Assembly (NCBI GenBank): GCA_043803945.1
Contig: JAZDJN010000087.1
Location: 160,001-224,000 of the forward strand
Direction: 5' to 3'
Length of the DNA stretch: 64,000 bases
From: a bacterium
GTDB lineage: Bacteria > Bacteroidota > Ignavibacteria > UBA10030
The notes under the pieces are model-generated. The model saw only the letters and a list, made by a program, of their open reading frames with translations, ran no database searches and had not been told where the DNA came from. Shown one piece after another: positions 4,971 to 11,967 of this stretch (its first letter is position 1; the number at the start of each line of letters is the position of its first letter). The position numbers were made by a program, and so were the translations under genes.

Positions 4971-5927
4971 TTGGCCATGCAAATATGCATGAGAATGTCT
5001 TCAACAATTATCGCGTTAAGTCTCTTCATACTGTTTACAGTACCGGCAACAGAATCGTTTTCTAAGGAGACTCGAGATCGAACATTGCAGCGTAAACTCG
5101 AGCAGCTTGTGAAGGGATTCAGGGGAGATGTTGGAATATACGTTCGGAATTTGAAGACCGGAAAAAGTGCCGCCATCAATGCCGACTCCCTTTTCCCGGC
5201 AGCAAGCCTTGTGAAGATACCAATTCTTTTTTCTCTCTTCGAGAAAATCGAAAACGGAGAACTGCAGTATGGAGCAACATTGGTATACCGTGATTCTCTT
5301 CTTTATCCTGGAGACGATATTCTCGGAGCATTCAAGGATACAGCAACAATCACCTTGAGCAAGGTGGTAATGTTGACGCTCACAACCAGCGATAATACGG
5401 CGAGCCTCTGGCTGCAGCAACTGGCTGGAACCGGGCTTGCCATCAATGCGTGGCTGGAGAAAAATAATTTCCGCCAGTCGCGTGTGAATTCAAGAACACC
5501 CGGACGGGAAGAGAACCGCAGACAATATGGCTGGGGACAGACCACACCGCGTGAAATGGCGGAGATGCTGGTAATGATTCGCCAGGGACGGGCTATCAGT
5601 AAAGCGGCGAGTGATGAGATGTACCGCTGCCTTTCCCGAACCTATTGGGACCAGGAGGCCTGTTCAGAAATACCTCCGTACATCCATGTTACATCGAAAC
5701 AGGGTGCTGTTGATCAATCGCGGTCAGAAGTTCTTCTTGTTAGTGCACCCTCAGGAGATTATGTGTTTTCTGTTATCACAAAGAACCAGCAGCATACAAG
5801 CTGGAAGGAGGACAACGAAGGATTTGTGTTGTTGCGAAGTGTCTCGAAGCTGCTCTGGAAATACTACGAGCCAAAATCGAAGTGGAAACCCGCAGAGGGG
5901 AAAGAGAAGTACGGGAAAGAATATTAA
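4971..5927 (+). CDS. Serine hydrolase, class A beta-lactamase-like fold (Beta-lactamase2 family)
   Basis: FPAASLVK (SxxK), SDN, TTPREM, KQG (KTG equivalent); signal peptide. Confidence 0.85.
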   Translation: MAMQICMRMSSTIIALSLFILFTVPATESFSKETRDRTLQRKLEQLVKGFRGDVGIYVRNLKTGKSAAINADSLFPAASLVKIPILFSLFEKIENGELQYGATLVYRDSLLYPGDDILGAFKDTATITLSKVVMLTLTTSDNTASLWLQQLAGTGLAINAWLEKNNFRQSRVNSRTPGREENRRQYGWGQTTPREMAEMLVMIRQGRAISKAASDEMYRCLSRTYWDQEACSEIPPYIHVTSKQGAVDQSRSEVLLVSAPSGDYVFSVITKNQQHTSWKEDNEGFVLLRSVSKLLWKYYEPKSKWKPAEGKEKYGKEY

Positions 5928-5974: not shown

Positions 5975-6421
5975 CTAGTACTGCCTAAACTTTGTTTTTG
6001 AGATCCCGCTGAGAGAAAAAAAATAGGATTTCAATGTGGCGATAAATCCAACTGAAAGGGCACAGGTCACAACGATAACCTGGATGATAACTCCGGTAGA
6101 GTTCTCTAATTGCTGAGCATACCACATCAATGCAGTTACGAGAACCATTGGAATGACAAGCTTTCGTTCAAGTTCCCACTCCAATTTCATAGGTAATTCT
6201 TCCCGTTCCTTCTCAATAGTTTTTATAGATGCGATGAGCTGCTGTGATGGTACAACAATAGGAATACTTTGAAGATCCTGATGAATCCTGAGTATCTCTT
6301 CCTTATAGAGTCCACAGTGGGCACACTCTGCCAGGTGGCTTTCCATTTCAGCGGACAAATCCTCAGAGGATTCTGATGCGAGCAAACGATTCAATTGCTC
6401 TTTAAAATCATCACAGGTCAT
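5975..6421 (-). CDS. Zinc-finger (zf-HC2/ZAS) membrane anti-sigma factor
   Basis: MTC...HLAECAHC motif, two C-terminal TM helices, overlaps the sigma stop (ATGA). Confidence 0.85.
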   Translation of the reverse strand: MTCDDFKEQLNRLLASESSEDLSAEMESHLAECAHCGLYKEEILRIHQDLQSIPIVVPSQQLIASIKTIEKEREELPMKLEWELERKLVIPMVLVTALMWYAQQLENSTGVIIQVIVVTCALSVGFIATLKSYFFSLSGISKTKFRQY

Positions 6422-6942
6422 ACCATTACCTTTCTCTTCATAACCATTGTTCTCAATCGCTCTCGGCCTCGATGAAGTGCTGTACCGACTGTACCCACTG
6501 GAATTTCTAAGATCATAGCAATTTCATTATAATCCATTCCTTCAAGATAGAAGAGCGTAATTGCAGACGCTTCACCATCTGGAAGCCGGGCAATGAGATC
6601 TGCCAGTATTTGTCTCTCCTCTTGTTGGATGAGCAGGGTCTCCGGGGTAGCGTGCTCCAGTGGAAGAGACTCTGTGTCCATGACCTGATTATTCTCAAGG
6701 GAAACAACAGGAAGCACTTTTTTTGCCCTTCTCGACAGGCAAATATTTGTGGTAATTTTCCAGATCCAGGTGGAAAGCTGTGCTTCTTGACGAAAATGAG
6801 GAAGCCCTTGATGGACACGGAGAAAGACATCGAATACCGCTTCTTCAGCGTCCAAACAGTTTCCCAACATTCTTAATGCATGGTTATAAACATGTGTAGA
6901 AAAATCATCCACAATATTTTGAAATTCCCTGGAAGCGAGCAC
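6418..6942 (-). CDS. ECF sigma-70 factor
   Basis: DAEEAVFDVFLRV, LSTWIWKITTN (region 2); YNEIAMILEIPVGTVGTALHRGRERL (region 4). Confidence 0.95.
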   Translation of the reverse strand: MLASREFQNIVDDFSTHVYNHALRMLGNCLDAEEAVFDVFLRVHQGLPHFRQEAQLSTWIWKITTNICLSRRAKKVLPVVSLENNQVMDTESLPLEHATPETLLIQQEERQILADLIARLPDGEASAITLFYLEGMDYNEIAMILEIPVGTVGTALHRGRERLRTMVMKRKVMV

Positions 6943-7098: not shown

Positions 7099-7461
7099 AT
7101 GGAGCTCTTCGCTCAGACTGCACAAATAACAATATTCACAGTTGCTATAACGCTTGCCACAATTTGGGAATATTCGAAACGTGAGCGTATACACAAGGAA
7201 AAAATGCTCTATCTATCGAAACTCACCGAATTGCCTGAAATACTGCCAGATATTGATCTTCCTAAAATATTAATCACAGGCCTCGTAGCGCTTTTTGCGT
7301 TTGCCGGCGGCATTAGTGTTATTGTCATGATGGTTGTGTTCATGTTGTCGACAACGTTCATTGCACTCTATATTGCATGTTCATTATTTATGATTTCACT
7401 CTTTCTTATGCTGATTGTACTCCGGGATTATCAGCTTTACTTAAAAGAACGAAAAGGGTAG
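7099..7461 (+). CDS. Small multi-pass membrane protein (DUF6249-like), likely ECF target
   Basis: AGGAG RBS; TM helix, then KRERIHKEK, then two TM helices. Confidence 0.65.
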   Translation: MELFAQTAQITIFTVAITLATIWEYSKRERIHKEKMLYLSKLTELPEILPDIDLPKILITGLVALFAFAGGISVIVMMVVFMLSTTFIALYIACSLFMISLFLMLIVLRDYQLYLKERKG

Positions 7462-7469
7462 GACACAAT

Positions 7470-7853
7470 ATGGTTACTATACTATTATTTGAAGCATTGA
7501 TCGCGGGCTGGATCCTCATGAGGCAAGAACGGCGCCATGCTATGGAAGAACGGTACTACTTAAAACAATTAGGAATGCCGGACCCGTCACCAAAACCAAC
7601 ACTTCTAGTGTTCGAATCCTGGCTGACAGTGACAACCGGGGCTGCGCTTTTTGTTGGAGGTGTCTGGTTATTATCGATTTTCCTGCCTCATCTCGGGAAA
7701 TTTATGAAGATGCCTCATGGAGCAATATCCTTGTTCATGCCGATTCTTTTGGTGGCAGTTGGTTTTGCGCTTCTATTCCTTGGAATAAAATCTCTCCTCA
7801 CCCACAAAAAAGTCCGTGAAGAATCTTTTTCCCATGTTGAACGTTATCCCTGA
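7470..7853 (+). CDS. Small multi-pass membrane protein, similar architecture to the preceding gene
   Basis: ATG at 7470 after AGGA; TM helix, then RQERRHAMEE, a Pro-rich linker and two TM helices. Confidence 0.65.
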   Translation: MVTILLFEALIAGWILMRQERRHAMEERYYLKQLGMPDPSPKPTLLVFESWLTVTTGAALFVGGVWLLSIFLPHLGKFMKMPHGAISLFMPILLVAVGFALLFLGIKSLLTHKKVREESFSHVERYP

Positions 7854-7910
7854 TTTAGAATGGACAATGAAAACCAGAATTATGGAGAATCATTTCTGCA
7901 AGGAGAAAAT

Positions 7911-7987
7911 GCCCCACTAAGGGCAGTATGTACCGCATTGAACCTTCCGAAGGTTTCTAGGATTAATCGCCGATACCTTCGGAAGGT
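7911..7987. repeat. REP-like palindromes (REPIN-like doublet)
   Basis: AACCTTCCGAAGGTT (7941-7955) inverted against ACCTTCGGAAGGT (7975-7987); GCCCCACTAAGGGC at 7911. Confidence 0.6.
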
Positions 7988-8138
7988 CACGTTTTTCTAA
8001 CCGCAGGCGATGCTAAGGATTTTAACACAATCGCATTTTCCATTTTCCTTTTTGCCTTGGTGATTCTACTGTTTTTCTAATGACTTTTTACCTTTCATTG
8101 CGTACCATCGGTAAGTAAGAATTCATCAAGGATCATCT

Positions 8139-8732
8139 ATGCCTCCGATTCTTTCATTTCTCCTTCTCATCGGCGGCACATATTTATACAGCTCCTGGCA
8201 GATGAGAAGATTGAAAGCACAGCTCACCGGGCAGGAATTCCCCAAAGAGTGGCAGCGAAACCTGTTCAATTATGGAGCATTGATTTCCATTGTCCTCGTG
8301 ATCAACGCGGTGAGCTATATGAAGATGCGAGAATTTGACATGACGATGATGATGTACCAAGAGGTCGTAATGCCGGATGGCACCATTGGTGAACCTACGT
8401 CTTCGGGATTGTTCATCGGACAGCTTGAAGTCGTCGGCGGAACACTCTCCCTGCTTGCCCTGGTCTGGGGAACCATCCAGAGAAAGGTGGAGACACTCAA
8501 TCCAAAGGATCAAACATCCACGCTCCAGGTGATGGCTGCCGTAACACAAAGTCTGCTTGCGCCATTTTGGCTTGCAACTCTCGGCATCGGATCACTGTTC
8601 GGTATCTCTTCTGGTTTCGGATTGAGGGATATTATCCGCCACGCTGAGCTTATCATGGGCCCTCCTCTCATCATGGCACTTGAACTCACCGCTATTTGGG
8701 CATTTCTGAAATTCGGTGTTACACGGGAATAG
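8139..8732 (+). CDS. Hypothetical integral membrane protein
   Basis: About 5 hydrophobic helices; AAGGA RBS. Confidence 0.65.
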   Translation: MPPILSFLLLIGGTYLYSSWQMRRLKAQLTGQEFPKEWQRNLFNYGALISIVLVINAVSYMKMREFDMTMMMYQEVVMPDGTIGEPTSSGLFIGQLEVVGGTLSLLALVWGTIQRKVETLNPKDQTSTLQVMAAVTQSLLAPFWLATLGIGSLFGISSGFGLRDIIRHAELIMGPPLIMALELTAIWAFLKFGVTRE

Positions 8733-8967
8733 AATTTACATTAGCCTTGTGGTACGGTTGGACCGTGCCACCGTACACAAGAGTGTTTATCCACTTCCAT
8801 ATAAATCAACAAAAACAGGCTTCTGACTCTCCGGATTCGCAATTAGTGGCTTGCGCTTCATTCAGCTATTTTGTTTCTTTACTACTACTGCATCCTTCAC
8901 CGAGCATCTTATGAGGGCAAATCCTCATGAGATGACTCCATCTCTCAAACTGTAAGAGGTTATCCTT

Positions 8968-10464
8968 ATGAAAGCTAAAAAACTTTTGATGACGGCATAT
9001 CTTCAACTTGGCTATACGGTCCTTTGCGCCGGCCTTGCTTTCGGGTCCTACAGACTAAGCCGGTACCTGATGAAATGTGCCGGTGGTGGCTGAGGGGCTT
9101 CCCAATTTGGGGGTCTCCCAAACTTCTTTTCAGTATTGTTCACCATTCTTGCCGTTTATTTTGTCCTAGCCGCGATACGTTCTGTATTGCTCTCCATGGC
9201 GGAGGAGAACAAACTTCCTCCTGTCATGCGAACCATCCTCCTGAGCGAGTACAGCCTCATCATTAGTAAATTTCTCGATTGGTTCCGTTTGAAGCGCCGG
9301 CATCTCGTAGTTCGTTTCCTGCTGTGGGGCGTCGGAATACTTTTTCTGGCTCAATTGCTGGCGTCGCTTGTCAGTAATTCGGGGAAGGCTGAGATCATTC
9401 CGAATTACGTTCCATGGGAAGATCCACCGTTAGTCCGTTCTCGGGTGGTAACACTTCCTCTCATGGCATCGAATTCTCCGGAAACATATTTGCCTCATTG
9501 CATTACGCTTGTGGATCAGCTCAAAGCTGCCGGAGCAAAACTTGTGGTTGTCGATTACAGAGGCATTCATCCGGATGTCAACGGTCCAGTATTTGACTAT
9601 ACAAAGCGGCTCATGGAAACCGGTATCGTCATTTTTGCAGTGGAACCTCAATGGCGCGGACTCGAATCGAATTTCCCGTTGGCTGAATTTTCAATCGATG
9701 CCGATGTCGCACGCTATGGCCGCATCCATAGATTTACACCGACCGGTGCCGGGAACCATGGAGATGTTCTCATCGAACTCCTTCGGCGAGCGCATCAATA
9801 TCCCGACAGTATGCGGGTGACCATCAAGAAAGAATTCTTCGCCTTCGGCGACTATGCTTTCCCCTGTGATTCTGAAGGCTCGTTTTATATGGATCTGAAT
9901 AATCTGCGGATTACCTCCGATGCAGAGTTGAATCCGGTTCGGGTCATTGAGAAGCCTACCACCCATGAATTGGACTATTATAGCAGTGGCAATTGGTACA
10001 CACCCGATACCACACGATCACCGCTTCTCAACAAGTATGCAAAACGATATAAAGATAAATTTGTACTGTTGCTGAACGAAAACTTCCCCGAACGGCCATA
10101 CCCATATTTTCTCAGTAGCTGCTATCCGCTCGCGTTTGCATCTCTGCAACAGGGGATGCAACCATTTGTGCAATCGAAGTGGCTGCATTATGGGTTTGCT
10201 ATACTCTTCATGCTTCTGATCGGTGTGGTGTGTTACCGGTTGCGACTGAGCTTCGCCATTCCGTTTGTGCTGATACTCACCCTCGGATCATTCTATGCAA
10301 TCGACTGGCTGCTCTACCGCCAGCACATCTTTGTCCAGATGCTGCCATTAACGTTTTCCATCGTCTTAACAACGATAGTGTTTCCTTTGCTCAAGTTTGC
10401 GTTCGATCATTCTGTACAAAAACAGGCCAGCACAAATACAAATGTCGATTCAATAACACAATAA
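8968..10464 (+). CDS. CHASE2-like membrane sensor protein (498 aa with read-through), in-frame TGA at codon 42 (9091-9093) in C-A-G-G-G-U-G; putative selenoprotein
   Basis: ATG 8968 with AGAGG RBS gives MKAKKLLMTAYLQLGYTVLCAGLAFGSYRLSRYLMKCAGGG*GASQFGGLPNFFSVLFTILAVYF..., in frame with ORF 9136-10464. QLKAAGAKLVVVD is CHASE2-like; three C-terminal TM helices. Confidence 0.75.
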
Positions 10465-10482
10465 TACTCCAAGAAGGTGCGT

Positions 10483-11967
10483 ATGAAAATCGATCACTAT
10501 GTGAAGTCAGCCTATATCCAGTTTGGGTTCTTTCTCGCAAGCGGCGGTATGGCCTACGGCACACACAAACTTGGCCGCTATCTCATGCAGTGCTCCGGCG
10601 GCGGCTGAGGATCTTCCTACTATGGGAGTCTCCCATTCAGCCTCAGAACGTTCTTTATCATTCTCACGGTCTATTTCTTCTTTGCGGCAATTCGTTCACT
10701 ACTCCTTTCACTTGCACGTGCCGGGAAACTGCCTCAATGGATGGAACTGATTCTCATCAGTGAATACAGAATCATTCTTACGAATTTTCTCAACTGGTGC
10801 AGGCGGCAGCAGCGAAAACTCTGGGTCCAGTATGTATGCTGGAGTGTGGTCATCGTAGTCTTTGCTGTGAGTATTGCAACGACTGTCAGGAACAGGAAAG
10901 TCGGCCGGTATGAACATACCGAAAGCATCGCTCTCTGGCCTGACCAACCCATCATGAACCCCTCCCTGATGAGTATCGATGTTTATGACTGCACCAATGA
11001 TGAGGCATATCTCGCTAACTGTCTCGACATGGTCGAGCAATTAAAGCAGGCGGGTACAAAAGCCGTTGTGGTCGATTGCAGATATATTTACCCGTTGGCC
11101 AGTCCCCGCATTACCGAGTATTACCGATCACTCCATGAAACCGGCGTGGTGATTTTTGGCGTAGACGGAGACTGGAGGCCAATTGATACCAATTTCACCG
11201 CTGTTGAAGTTACCGCCAATTTCGACTTGACCCGCTATGGACGAATCCACCGCTTTCTCGCAAGCGGGTATGGCGGATACCCCGACCTCCTCTTTGAGTT
11301 GCTCAGAAGACATCAGGGATATTCAAAGAATGTTTCGTTTACCGTGAAAAAGGGAATTGCTCAGCTTGGCAACTATACGATTCCTCTTGATAAAGATGAT
11401 TCATTCTCCATGGATATTGACTCCAGAAGAATCGTGGCGTATGAAAAGGTGAGTCCTGTGTATGCCATCATGAGCATAAAAACGGGTAAGCTGGAATATC
11501 ACGGATGGAATTCCTACAACGTTCCCGATCCGAAGGAAAAGCCTCTCCTTGAAACATTTGGCAAACGGTTCAAGGATAAATATGTCATGATCACGAATCA
11601 AAGTAGGTATAACTATAGTATCAACAGTAGTGAGTATGGAAAAATTTATCCTGTTGCATTTGAGAACCTGTTGGCGCACGACACCTTTTTGCCGAAACCG
11701 TGGCTAGAGTACGTCGCTATGGGTCTCTTCCTGTTGCTCTGCGCCACCGCGTGCACATGGCTGCGGTTCAGTTATGCTGTACCCTTAGTTCTTGTTCTCT
11801 ATGGTGGATCGGCATATGTGGTTGACTATCTGCAATTTTTCCAGCACTGGTATTTTCCCGGTGCAGCGTTCAACAATGCGGCAATCGCCTCTTCAATTCT
11901 TTTTCCATTATTACGCTTTCTTGCCGATCACAGGAACAACGAGGAACATCATCCGACGCCCCACTAA
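10483..11967 (+). CDS. CHASE2-like membrane sensor paralog (494 aa with read-through), in-frame TGA at codon 42 (10606-10608) in C-S-G-G-G-U-G; putative selenoprotein
   Basis: ATG 10483 with GAAGG RBS gives MKIDHYVKSAYIQFGFFLASGGMAYGTHKLGRYLMQCSGGG*GSSYYGSLPFSLRTFFIILTVYFFFAAIRSLLLSLARAGKLPQWMELILISEY, in frame with ORF 10741-11967. QLKQAGTKAVVVD and RYGRIHRF are shared with the paralog. Confidence 0.75.

Follow-up and report, generated by a model that had tools for sequence, protein, structure and literature searches.

Tandem CHASE2-like membrane proteins sharing an in-frame UGA at codon 42: a candidate bacterial selenoprotein family

The 64-kb window analysed here, by which we mean the whole stretch of DNA of 64,000 nucleotides, contains two adjacent genes, A and B, whose reading frames are both interrupted by TGA at codon 42. 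This raises the question of whether the triplet terminates translation, is bypassed in some other way, or is decoded as selenocysteine (Sec). Our comparison of the sequences makes it very probable that A and B are true selenoproteins in which UGA-42 is read as Sec, and proteins of this type would then constitute a previously uncatalogued bacterial selenoprotein family. Such a candidate family had been put forward in an original prediction made from the DNA alone, and it is now supported by conservation of the UGA, the presence of sel genes, selection on both sides of the triplet and a SECIS-type hairpin.

Gene layout and conservation of the UGA

The original prediction described two paralogs with a ribosome-binding site and an ATG, a TGA at exactly codon 42 of each, and a run of 44 codons behind the TGA of gene B that contains no start, and all three features were found in the sequence (Table 1), with the TGA in a C-x-G-G-G-U-G context in both genes. 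The TAA of gene A and the ATG of gene B are separated by 18 nt. When the TGA is read through, the two products (498 and 494 aa) can be aligned over their whole length with 39% identity (E=4e-115), and identity over residues 1-86, at 49%, is above the whole-protein value. The earliest ATG, GTG or TTG downstream of the TGA in gene B lies at 10741, so that the 44 preceding codons are translatable only by decoding the UGA. The codons around the TGA differ synonymously between A and B (Gly codons GGT versus GGC), which argues against recent gene conversion. Just two matches to the pattern TGY-NNN-GGN-GGN-GGN-TGA-GGN exist in the 5.54-Mb genome, one in gene A and one in gene B, and this rarity, together with the recurrence of the TGA in three loci from other sources (see below), indicates that the shared triplet is not due to chance.

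Table 1. Positions of the features discussed, in window coordinates.
Feature	Position	Strand	Remarks
Shine-Dalgarno-like TAAGAGG	8953..8959	+	8 nt 5' of gene A ATG; read from sequence
Gene A	8968..10464	+	498-codon frame; ATG 8968, UGA = codon 42, TAA end; predicted selenoprotein
Cys37 codon (TGT), gene A	9076..9078	+	
Candidate bacterial SECIS, gene A	9090..9131	+	lower stem takes in UGA; also flagged by terminator-like scan
In-frame TGA, codon 42 of gene A	9091..9093	+	proposed selenocysteine; homologous TGA in L045, L046, L047
Apical hairpin, gene A	9106-9122	+	UUUGGG[GGUCU]CCCAAA
CHASE2-like extracytoplasmic domain, gene A	9343..10212	+	divergent; ~residues 126-415; hhalign
Shine-Dalgarno-like AAGAAGG	10471..10477	+	5 nt 5' of gene B ATG; read from sequence
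Gene B	10483..11967	+	494-codon frame; ATG 10483, UGA = codon 42, TAA end; paralog of A; predicted selenoprotein
Cys37 codon (TGC), gene B	10591..10593	+	
Candidate bacterial SECIS, gene B	10605..10646	+	lower stem takes in UGA
In-frame TGA, codon 42 of gene B	10606..10608	+	proposed selenocysteine
UGA-to-first-start stretch, gene B	10609..10740	+	44 codons, encode TM2; no in-frame ATG/GTG/TTG
Apical hairpin, gene B	10622-10636	+	AUGGG[AGUCU]CCCAU
CHASE2-like domain, gene B	10858..11721	+	placed via alignment with A; boundaries inferred; faint Pfam match E=0.068

If the TGA is functional, it should be retained in homologues or replaced there by a Cys codon, and the first of these expectations is borne out. 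Three metagenome loci (L045, L046 and L047), whose identity to A is 31-35% in the best tblastn segments and 33% over a full-length alignment, carry TGA at the homologous codon within the motif Y-L-x-C-x-G-G-G-U-G-S, bringing the number of sequences with the same TGA in this motif to five, from at least three sources. Cys37 is invariant in all four complete N-termini. A tree of 30 family members places the six rows that bear the TGA or correspond to truncated gene calls in one clade with 100/100 support; this clade splits into (P0003,(A,B)) and (P0007,(L045,L046)), with branches longer than 0.5 substitutions per site, and the TGA thus occurs on either side of its deepest division. At the DNA level the evidence for the UGA is limited to A, B and the L045/L046/L047 group, which count as three lineages; a further one (P0038 and P0003) is seen only at the protein level, where the P0038 peptide terminates immediately 5' of the homologous codon 42. 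Among 401 genomes of the class, three match at E<=1e-20 and only the source genome (G000) has the TGA form; among 100 relatives of a second host (G437), six match at E<=1e-30 and only G437 itself has it. The two sets overlap and their counts are not additive.

The second expectation, TGC or TGT in some homologues, was disappointed. A search with residues 1-110 of P0001 returned 304 candidates, none at E<=0.001; in an exhaustive phmmer search with P0002 the motif was covered by nothing but the window's own 41-aa peptide; and an N-terminal profile gave no match at E<=1 to longer proteins, which is weak evidence. Cys-containing homologues at the Sec position are a classical supporting criterion for selenoproteins, though not a strictly defining one. 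The distant, stop-free paralogs have the TM1-loop-TM2 region as one continuous protein, with an unrelated loop that has no Cys and lacks the entire C-x-G-G-G-U-G motif. The source genome holds several further paralogs, one of them with an in-frame TAA.

Genes A and B are flanked by an ECF sigma/anti-sigma pair, two unannotated membrane proteins, an esterase and an M28 peptidase. No conserved operon partner was found and these neighbours give no functional clue; an alpha/beta-hydrolase beside the metagenome copies proved not to be the same protein as the hydrolase next to B (E=0.026). A promoter scan remained at background level (7 found versus 8.8 expected).

Selenocysteine machinery and a candidate SECIS hairpin

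Confirmation of sel genes in the genome had been proposed as a check, and selA, selB, a Sec-type selD and tRNA-Sec are all present above cut-offs in the source genome, on the same contig as gene A and 38-53 kb upstream of it; the selD gene itself carries one in-frame TGA. The second host of the TGA form has selA, selB and tRNA-Sec above cut-offs. No Sec-type FdhA was found in the source genome, and scripted genome-wide scans for selenoproteins returned largely noise, without any additional convincing candidate.

These observations bear on the possibility that the UGA is passed without selenium, either through leaky termination that depends on context or with the help of a near-cognate or suppressor tRNA inserting Trp, Cys, Arg or Gly. 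The signs that translation continues past the UGA do not by themselves say which residue is inserted, and the hairpin energies given below are modest. Against such a bypass, both hosts of the TGA form possess the Sec machinery, while selA was detected in only 1 of 61 genomes of a family/order sample, that one being the source genome, and in none of the 60 other relatives. TGA is moreover a frequent true stop. It terminates 488 of 1571 long open frames in the source genome, which has therefore not reassigned it globally, and even the L046 gene itself ends in TGA. The Cys five residues upstream of the UGA is also typical of redox selenoproteins, as far as these appear in the parts of Table 1 of PMC13188914 that we compared.

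The geometry of the RNA downstream of the UGA is a further argument against a selenium-free bypass. A hairpin lies at the same offset in all four sequences available (A, B, L045 and L046), with stems of 5-7 bp and a 5-nt apical loop that begins 18 nt past the UGA and follows the pattern N-G-U-N-U (GGUCU, AGUCU, CGUGU and CGUGU, respectively). In these four sequences 89.3% of the pair cells are able to pair, compared to 18-64% when the 3' partners are slid. Compensatory changes occur at two pairs, U-A/C-G (at partly synonymous third positions) and U-A/A-U, and RNAalifold independently recovers the same hairpin; with only four sequences, 23 of 500 shuffles reach the observed covariation score, and the conserved codons for Gly and Pro partly dictate the three G-C stem pairs. 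Although 221 of 1491 nt (15%) distinguish L045 from L046, the two share every base from +14 to +55 relative to the TGA. Only one stretch of identity in the gene is longer, and the differences nearby fall in the unpaired spacer.

The apical hairpins have energies of -6.4, -5.6 (-6.3 with an inner A-U pair), -9.2 and -9.2 kcal/mol in A, B, L045 and L046, and the minimum free energies (MFEs) of the 48-nt segments are -12.5, -11.3, -17.2 and -19.3, the MFE fold of gene A being a competing structure; the energy criterion for a SECIS was an MFE of -7.5 kcal/mol or lower. Since the single-sequence folds are no better than those of shuffled sequences (Z-scores of +0.29 to -0.79), we rest no claim on energies. 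Searches of the 64-kb window with Rfam and ARAGORN returned nothing, including no bacterial SECIS family at gathering score.

The loop G-U occupies positions 23/24, numbering from the U of the UGA, the same positions as the essential loop bases (G23/U24) of E. coli fdhF. Like classical bacterial SECIS (bSECIS) elements, the four hairpins combine a small apical loop, with G followed by G/U, with a spacing inside 16-37 nt, and they fit the geometry given in the part of PMC13188914 that we compared (a loop of 3-9 nt with G within its first two positions, a stem of 4 bp or more, and a distance to the UGA of 16-37 nt). A loose form of these criteria combined with a nearby Cys selects 136 mostly non-coding frames in the source genome, and the criteria alone therefore prove little. 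The genome's own selD offers another comparison, with a GGU-loop hairpin 22 nt past its UGA; the family stems are shorter and weaker than its seven G/C-rich pairs, and the sequence of the family hairpin codes for a conserved G-x-(L/V)-P peptide motif. Taken with the distribution of the Sec machinery, the hairpin makes a selenium-free bypass of the UGA improbable in our view.

Coding selection and public gene calls

According to a second alternative the UGA is a true stop, and each locus encodes a 41-residue TM1 micropeptide followed by a separate, shortened CHASE2-like protein starting at about Met87. Gene callers yield exactly such products: the public calls P0004, P0006 and P0007 begin at the Met87 position, P0008, P0036, P0037 and P0038 are orphan peptides of 41-42 aa, and every public call found for the TGA clade is either such a peptide or a protein cut short at its N-terminus. 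The warning that standard annotation would truncate these genes has thus come true in public data. Position 87 is, in addition, a conserved methionine in A, B, L045, L046, P0006 and P0007, but P0003 has Val there.

Selection speaks against such a split. The ratio omega, calculated by the Nei-Gojobori method for the L045/L046 pair, is 0.138 before the TGA (11.5 synonymous and 6.5 non-synonymous differences), 0.065 between the TGA and the Met87 position (9 synonymous and 2 non-synonymous) and 0.204 in the remainder of the gene. The proposed comparison of dN/dS on the two sides of the stop therefore reveals purifying selection on both, and the stretch that would be non-coding in a split gene is the most constrained part. 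This stretch encodes TM2, which has no start in gene B and is continuous with TM1 in the stop-free paralogs. A split gene also leaves the conserved hairpin and the exclusive co-occurrence with the Sec machinery unexplained, and we give it very little credence.

That A and B are decaying pseudogenes sharing a nonsense mutation, or products of a sequencing or assembly error, would be compatible with the paralogs in the genome, whose redundancy could permit gene loss and one of which has the in-frame TAA, but is effectively refuted, as the original prediction had argued from a stop kept despite heavy divergence, by the TGA of L045-L047, its presence on both sides of the deepest split, the omega values and the lack of any further stop or frameshift within ~495 codons.

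A divergent CHASE2 domain and comparison with known systems

The label CHASE2-like, also part of the original prediction, stands at the level of profiles and not at that of the Pfam threshold. Alignment of the family profile with a CHASE2 profile by hhalign gave a probability of 98.7% (E=1.7e-16, 275 columns), whereas against Pfam CHASE2 (PF05226) P0002 scored 13.2 bits, below the gathering threshold of 26.3, P0001 had no match, and only 1 of 30 family members matched at E<=0.01. On the basis of the profile alignment, the central extracytoplasmic domain of ~270 residues is a divergent CHASE2 homolog. The AlphaFold2 model of the gene A product has a mean pLDDT of 85.2 and a pTM of 0.75; Foldseek found nothing in the PDB at E<=0.001, and there is thus no structural analogue to lean on.

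The predicted order of elements is TM1, a Gly-rich outer-face loop with Cys37 and Sec42, TM2, a basic cytoplasmic helix and TM3, followed by the CHASE2-like domain and three C-terminal TM helices. CHASE2 proteins usually have a TM helix before the domain and three after it, and the family shares this arrangement, to which it adds the N-terminal TM1-loop-TM2 module and an amphipathic helix. CHASE2 receptors are typically linked to a cytoplasmic output domain (kinase, cyclase or GGDEF), and the open frames of the top 12 bona fide CHASE2 matches are 709-754 aa long; the family proteins, in contrast, end soon after the last TM helix and lack such an output domain, and Pfam detected no other domain in them. 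No Cys/Sec motif of this type is known from canonical CHASE2 proteins, and neither a ligand nor a solved structure is known for the CHASE2 domain.

In the model that we favour, the ribosome would decode UGA-42 as Sec with the help of SelA, SelB, SelD and tRNA-Sec, directed by the putative SECIS hairpin within the coding sequence, to produce membrane proteins of ~495 residues; under selenium shortage, synthesis would stop at the 41-residue TM1 peptide. The Cys37/Sec42 pair would lie on the periplasmic face, adjoining the CHASE2-like domain, and may act as a redox-active selenenylsulfide switch or as a ligand of a soft metal or chalcogen, altering the packing of the TM1-TM2 hairpin. This specific redox or metal-sensing role, which the original prediction had also proposed, is one that we can only infer, and we would put it at somewhat below an even chance.

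If the Sec reading is correct, Sec would occur in CHASE2-type membrane modules and on the outer face of the cytoplasmic membrane, both uncatalogued for Sec in the portions of the literature compared below, and in a host lineage where the Sec trait is very rare. A systematic annotation error would be corrected for the TGA clade, the Cys/Sec handle beside the CHASE2 domain would provide an experimental entry point for that domain, and the missing Cys forms would make a useful case for why Sec, and not Cys, is required. A broader proposal is more doubtful: that this Sec-only clade, with no Cys counterpart and with an outer-face Cys-x4-Sec turn on an output-less CHASE2-type module, represents the first case of selenium dependence among the members of a family of bacterial extracytoplasmic sensor domains, and that its UGA could tie production of the full-length protein to the selenium supply. 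The A/B-type genes, together with selD, may on this proposal be a main reason why the two hosts have kept or acquired the Sec machinery, given the single selA among the 61 genomes and the lack of a Sec-type formate dehydrogenase.

A 2026 catalogue lists 119 prokaryotic selenoprotein families (PMC13188914 Table 1); neither a CHASE2 entry nor a C-x4-U or CxGGGU motif appears in the first two of the three parts of that table. The texts of this catalogue, of deep-Sep and of BSepDB (PMC12013277, PMC13326102), in the portions compared, contain no mention of CHASE or Ignavibacteria. NCBIfam release 20 gave no selenoprotein-family match at E<=1. The membrane and transport selenoproteins in the compared parts of PMC13188914 include YeeE/YedE (GUxSG), a putative mercuric transport protein (C/SxxU) and the SO_0444 Cu/Zn efflux transporter (UxC), which are thought to handle sulfur/selenium compounds or soft metals. 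Like the present family, with its G-U-G-[SA]-[SA], they are membrane proteins with Sec in a short Gly/Ser/Cys-rich motif, but the family has no NCBIfam or Pfam match to them and differs in fold and topology. With the thioredoxin-like thiol/selenol redox selenoproteins of the CxxU/UxxC type the family shares a Cys near the Sec and thus the possibility of a selenenylsulfide; it differs from them in not having a thioredoxin fold, in the four residues, three of them Gly, that separate Cys from Sec, and in the position of its motif in an outer-face inter-helix turn of a membrane protein.

Genes A and B and their TGA-bearing homologues

Genes A and B are neighbouring paralogues encoding candidate CHASE2-like membrane selenoproteins, each with a purine-rich ribosome-binding stretch before its ATG, 41 sense codons, a TGA within C-x-G-G-G-U-G (U being the proposed selenocysteine, Sec) and a frame that then stays open down to a TAA. 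In B, the earliest ATG, GTG or TTG after the TGA lies at 10741, 44 codons on. The original prediction of a new CHASE2-like selenoprotein family was accurate in each detail it described, and its main reading is supported by the conserved TGA, the coding constraint around it, the hairpin behind it and the Sec genes of the host. The read-through products (498 residues for A, 494 for B) align end to end with 39% identity (E=4e-115), and with 49% over residues 1-86; the DNA motif for C-x-G-G-G-TGA-G has two sites in the 5.54-Mb genome, namely A and B.

An exhaustive phmmer search with B against 1.84 billion cluster representatives returned 31 proteins at E<=0.001, seven at E<=1e-10 and five at E<=1e-30; the family is rare. 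Every one of the nearest matches is a truncated gene call: P0004 corresponds to gene A with its start called at Met87, P0006 and P0007 begin at the same Met, P0003 begins within TM2, and P0008 is the orphan 41-aa peptide of B. Pattern scans of metagenome contigs (543 stretches matched, 3 confirmed) and genome contigs (at least 598 matched, at least one confirmed) led to three further loci, L045, L046 and L047, the last being the same contig as L048, from an Ignavibacteria MAG. In all three the TGA is kept at the homologous codon, within Y-L-E-C-E-G-G-G-U-G-S, at 31-35% identity to A over the best tblastn segments and 33% for the full-length proteins. A profile of the N-terminal peptide, with seven candidates scored, found four small proteins. 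The 41-aa ORF P0038 is 66% identical to A's peptide and its last residues are exactly C-S-G-G-G; for both P0038 and P0003 the records give one 29,909-bp JGI contig, and together they very probably make up a fourth interrupted gene. In L046 a terminal TGA (5480-5482), about 1.4 kb past the internal one, is the true stop, and context must therefore distinguish both UGAs of one mRNA.

Thirty rows went into a maximum-likelihood tree: 26 of the 31 phmmer hits plus A, B and the proteins of L045 and L046. Left off were the fragments P0005 and P0020, the peptide P0008, P0004, and P0006, which is almost identical to the protein from L045. The six TGA-bearing or truncated-call rows form a single branch (support 100/100, stem of 1.04 changes per column) with the subclades (P0003,(A,B)) and (P0007,(L045,L046)); the TGA is present on both sides of its deepest split, and thus by parsimony was already there in the ancestor. 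The gap-free alignment of L045 with L046 (85.2% nucleotide identity) gives a Nei-Gojobori omega of 0.138 for the 41 codons ahead of the TGA, 0.065 for the 44 codons between it and the position of Met87, and 0.204 for the other 409. Selection thus acts on both sides of the stop, in line with the original prediction, and within the gene constraint is strongest in the stretch dropped by standard annotation. The longest run without differences between the two, synonymous sites included, is 45 nt long (L045:908-952 and its L046 counterpart, +141 to +185 from the TGA) and falls in the Met87 region, M-G-T-L-L-I-V-D-F-E-Q-I-V; a second RNA element there, or a signal for internal initiation, might account for it.

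Among 61 related genomes, 10 have a match at E<=0.001, and the only matches with an in-frame TGA are A and B. The others, 22-39% identical over the matched segments, align from residue 55 on only; their upstream frames retain the TM1-loop-TM2 layout in one continuous protein, with a loop of unrelated sequence and no Cys. At class level, 3 of 401 genomes match at E<=1e-20, with the TGA form in the source genome only; among relatives of G437, a second host of this form, 6 of 100 match at E<=1e-30, with the TGA form in G437 only. The source genome holds six more distant, output-less CHASE2-like paralogues (loci L038-L044), some paired on one contig and none with an in-frame TGA. One of these matches (C18:6936-7622) contains an in-frame TAA, and may represent a pseudogene or a gene boundary.

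Features of the source genome and, in the last row, of L045 and L046. Bare coordinates refer to the window, which spans C87:160001-224000; prefixed ones refer to contigs (C87 carries A and B).
Feature	Coordinates	Strand	Remarks
Gene A	8968-10464	+	ATG; TGA 9091-9093 (codon 42); TAA
Gene B	10483-11967	+	adjoins A; ATG; TGA 10606-10608 (codon 42); TAA
ECF sigma and zf-HC2 anti-sigma factors with the facing run of small membrane-protein ORFs	5975-6942 and 7099-8732	- and +	divergent
selA	C87:116333-117694
selB	C87:117744-119609
selD	C87:121270-122193		one in-frame TGA
tRNA-Sec	C87:129548-129642
Distant paralogue	C12:83118-84473
Distant paralogue	C12:89976-90614
Distant paralogue	C85:26694-27884
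Distant paralogue	C18:3693-4658
Distant paralogue	C18:6936-7622		in-frame TAA
Distant paralogue	C72:17452-18060
Apical hairpin, A			UUUGGG[GGUCU]CCCAAA
Apical hairpin, B			AUGGG[AGUCU]CCCAU
Apical hairpin, L045/L046			CUUCGGG[CGUGU]CCCGAAG

Selenocysteine machinery and a candidate SECIS hairpin

The sel genes that a Sec reading calls for were all found: selA, selB, selD and tRNA-Sec (loci L001, L009, L010 and L015), each scoring above its curated cut-off, make up a complete set at C87:116333-129642, on the contig that carries A and B, 30-44 kb before the start of the window. The organism is able to insert selenocysteine, and its selD has an in-frame TGA of its own, within S-A-C-A-G-U-A-G-K and followed by a 7-bp G/C-rich hairpin. 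TGA is not reassigned in this genome, because it closes 488 of 1571 long open frames (TAA 715, TAG 368). G437 has selA, selB (broken by a contig end) and tRNA-Sec, all above cut-offs. In the family/order sample selA occurs in 1 of 61 genomes, the source genome, and in none of the other 60, which include nine with stop-free paralogues. Related genomes are not independent and two hosts are few, but the association between TGA form and Sec trait runs as the selenocysteine reading predicts. The source genome is 5.5 Mb in size vs 1.5-4.9 Mb for its relatives; the Sec trait in this lineage may reflect horizontal acquisition, or loss almost everywhere else. The commonest bacterial selenoprotein is the Sec-type formate dehydrogenase. 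Its alpha subunit has no match at the family cut-off, and none with an internal TGA, in the whole genome, and therefore it is not what sustains the Sec trait there.

All four distinct sequences (A, B, L045, L046) have a hairpin at one common offset, its loop beginning 18 nt past the UGA. This geometry agrees with the bacterial SECIS model as set out in a recent review (spacing of 16-37 nt, stem of no fewer than 4 bp, loop of 3-9 nt with G in its first two positions; PMC13188914). The organism's own selD has its GGU loop 22 nt past the UGA. Standard pairs fill 89.3% of the 28 pair cells, vs 18-64% with the 3' partners slid by 1-3 columns, and RNAalifold recovered the hairpin unprompted, plus a lower stem taking in the UGA. 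Two-sided changes affect 2 of the 7 pairs, one of them between the third positions of a Phe/Tyr codon and of the Pro codon; 23 of 500 shuffles scored at or above the observed covariation. From +14 to +55, counted from the TGA, L045 and L046 show no difference (42 nt, the gene's second-longest invariant run), the closest differences, at +8, +9, +11 and +13, all being in the spacer; if divergence were uniform, the chance of finding 37 nt free of differences at a given position would be about P=0.003. The apical stems alone have energies of -5.6 to -9.2 kcal/mol. Since single-sequence fold energies of the hairpin regions were not better than those of shuffles, and 136 mostly non-coding frames of the genome satisfy loose SECIS criteria with a nearby Cys, the weight lies on conservation and covariation. 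In A, a T-rich tail (CTTCTTTTCA) follows the hairpin (9106-9131) and was flagged by an intrinsic-terminator scan; it is absent in B and the metagenome copies, and could signify transcription attenuation during ribosome stalling at the UGA, or coincidence.

Computation shows that translation must pass the UGA in A and B, and finds in sequence and genome the signatures of SelB/SECIS-dependent Sec insertion. We consider it highly likely that both are true selenoproteins.

Domain, topology and possible role

Neither protein matches Pfam or NCBIfam above threshold; the sole Pfam lead was a faint CHASE2 match of B (E=0.068), and among 30 family members one reaches E=3.8e-4 against CHASE2. The family profile aligns with a profile built from 12 bona fide CHASE2 domains, drawn from the source genome and its relatives, over 275 columns, A residues 126-415 (probability 98.7%, E=1.7e-16). 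A confident AlphaFold2 model from the 30-row alignment (mean pLDDT 85.2, pTM 0.75) has a helix at 2-40, a low-confidence turn at 40-42, helices at 43-47, 49-79, 85-109 and 113-137, an alpha/beta domain and three long helices; a Foldseek search returned no solved structure at E<=0.001. The L046 protein has no Lys/Arg in the TM1-TM2 loop vs seven in the segment past TM2, which by the positive-inside rule would place the Cys/Sec loop and the CHASE2-like domain together on the outer face. In another genome of the order (G038), a short bona fide CHASE2 match (C36:29799-30185, profile positions 5-101) contains one in-frame TGA.

In a flexible turn, with x-G-G-G between them, Cys37 and Sec42 might form either a selenenylsulfide with redox activity or a soft-ligand site; this site would lie on the periplasmic face and modulate the TM1-TM2 hairpin beside the CHASE2-like domain. 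Selenium supply might gate how much full-length protein is made relative to the 41-aa peptide. A specific sensing role is possible rather than probable. The proteins have no output domain. The gene neighbourhoods of A, B and their homologues revealed no conserved partner gene. Near A and B, the divergent ECF sigma and anti-sigma factor genes are faced by a run of small unannotated membrane-protein ORFs (120, 158 and 197 aa), which continues up to A and B; the anti-sigma factor has a weak RsrA-like match (E=7e-4, under cut-off). This neighbourhood may indicate a regulatory link to envelope or thiol stress.

Relation to known selenoproteins

A 2026 review catalogues 119 selenoprotein families and subfamilies (PMC13188914), and parts 1-2 of its table list no CHASE2 domain or C-x4-U motif. 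Searched by term, the main texts of this review, deep-Sep and BSepDB gave no mention of CHASE, membrane or Ignavibacteria. Our literature search found nothing linking selenoproteins with CHASE2, and papers joining selenoproteins and Ignavibacteria deal with other topics, going by their titles and abstract openings. Neither A nor B matches the NCBIfam selenoprotein models. Reports of further bacterial selenoprotein families continue to appear regularly; what is distinctive in this one, besides the lack of any Cys form among the homologues found, is its protein class and its location.
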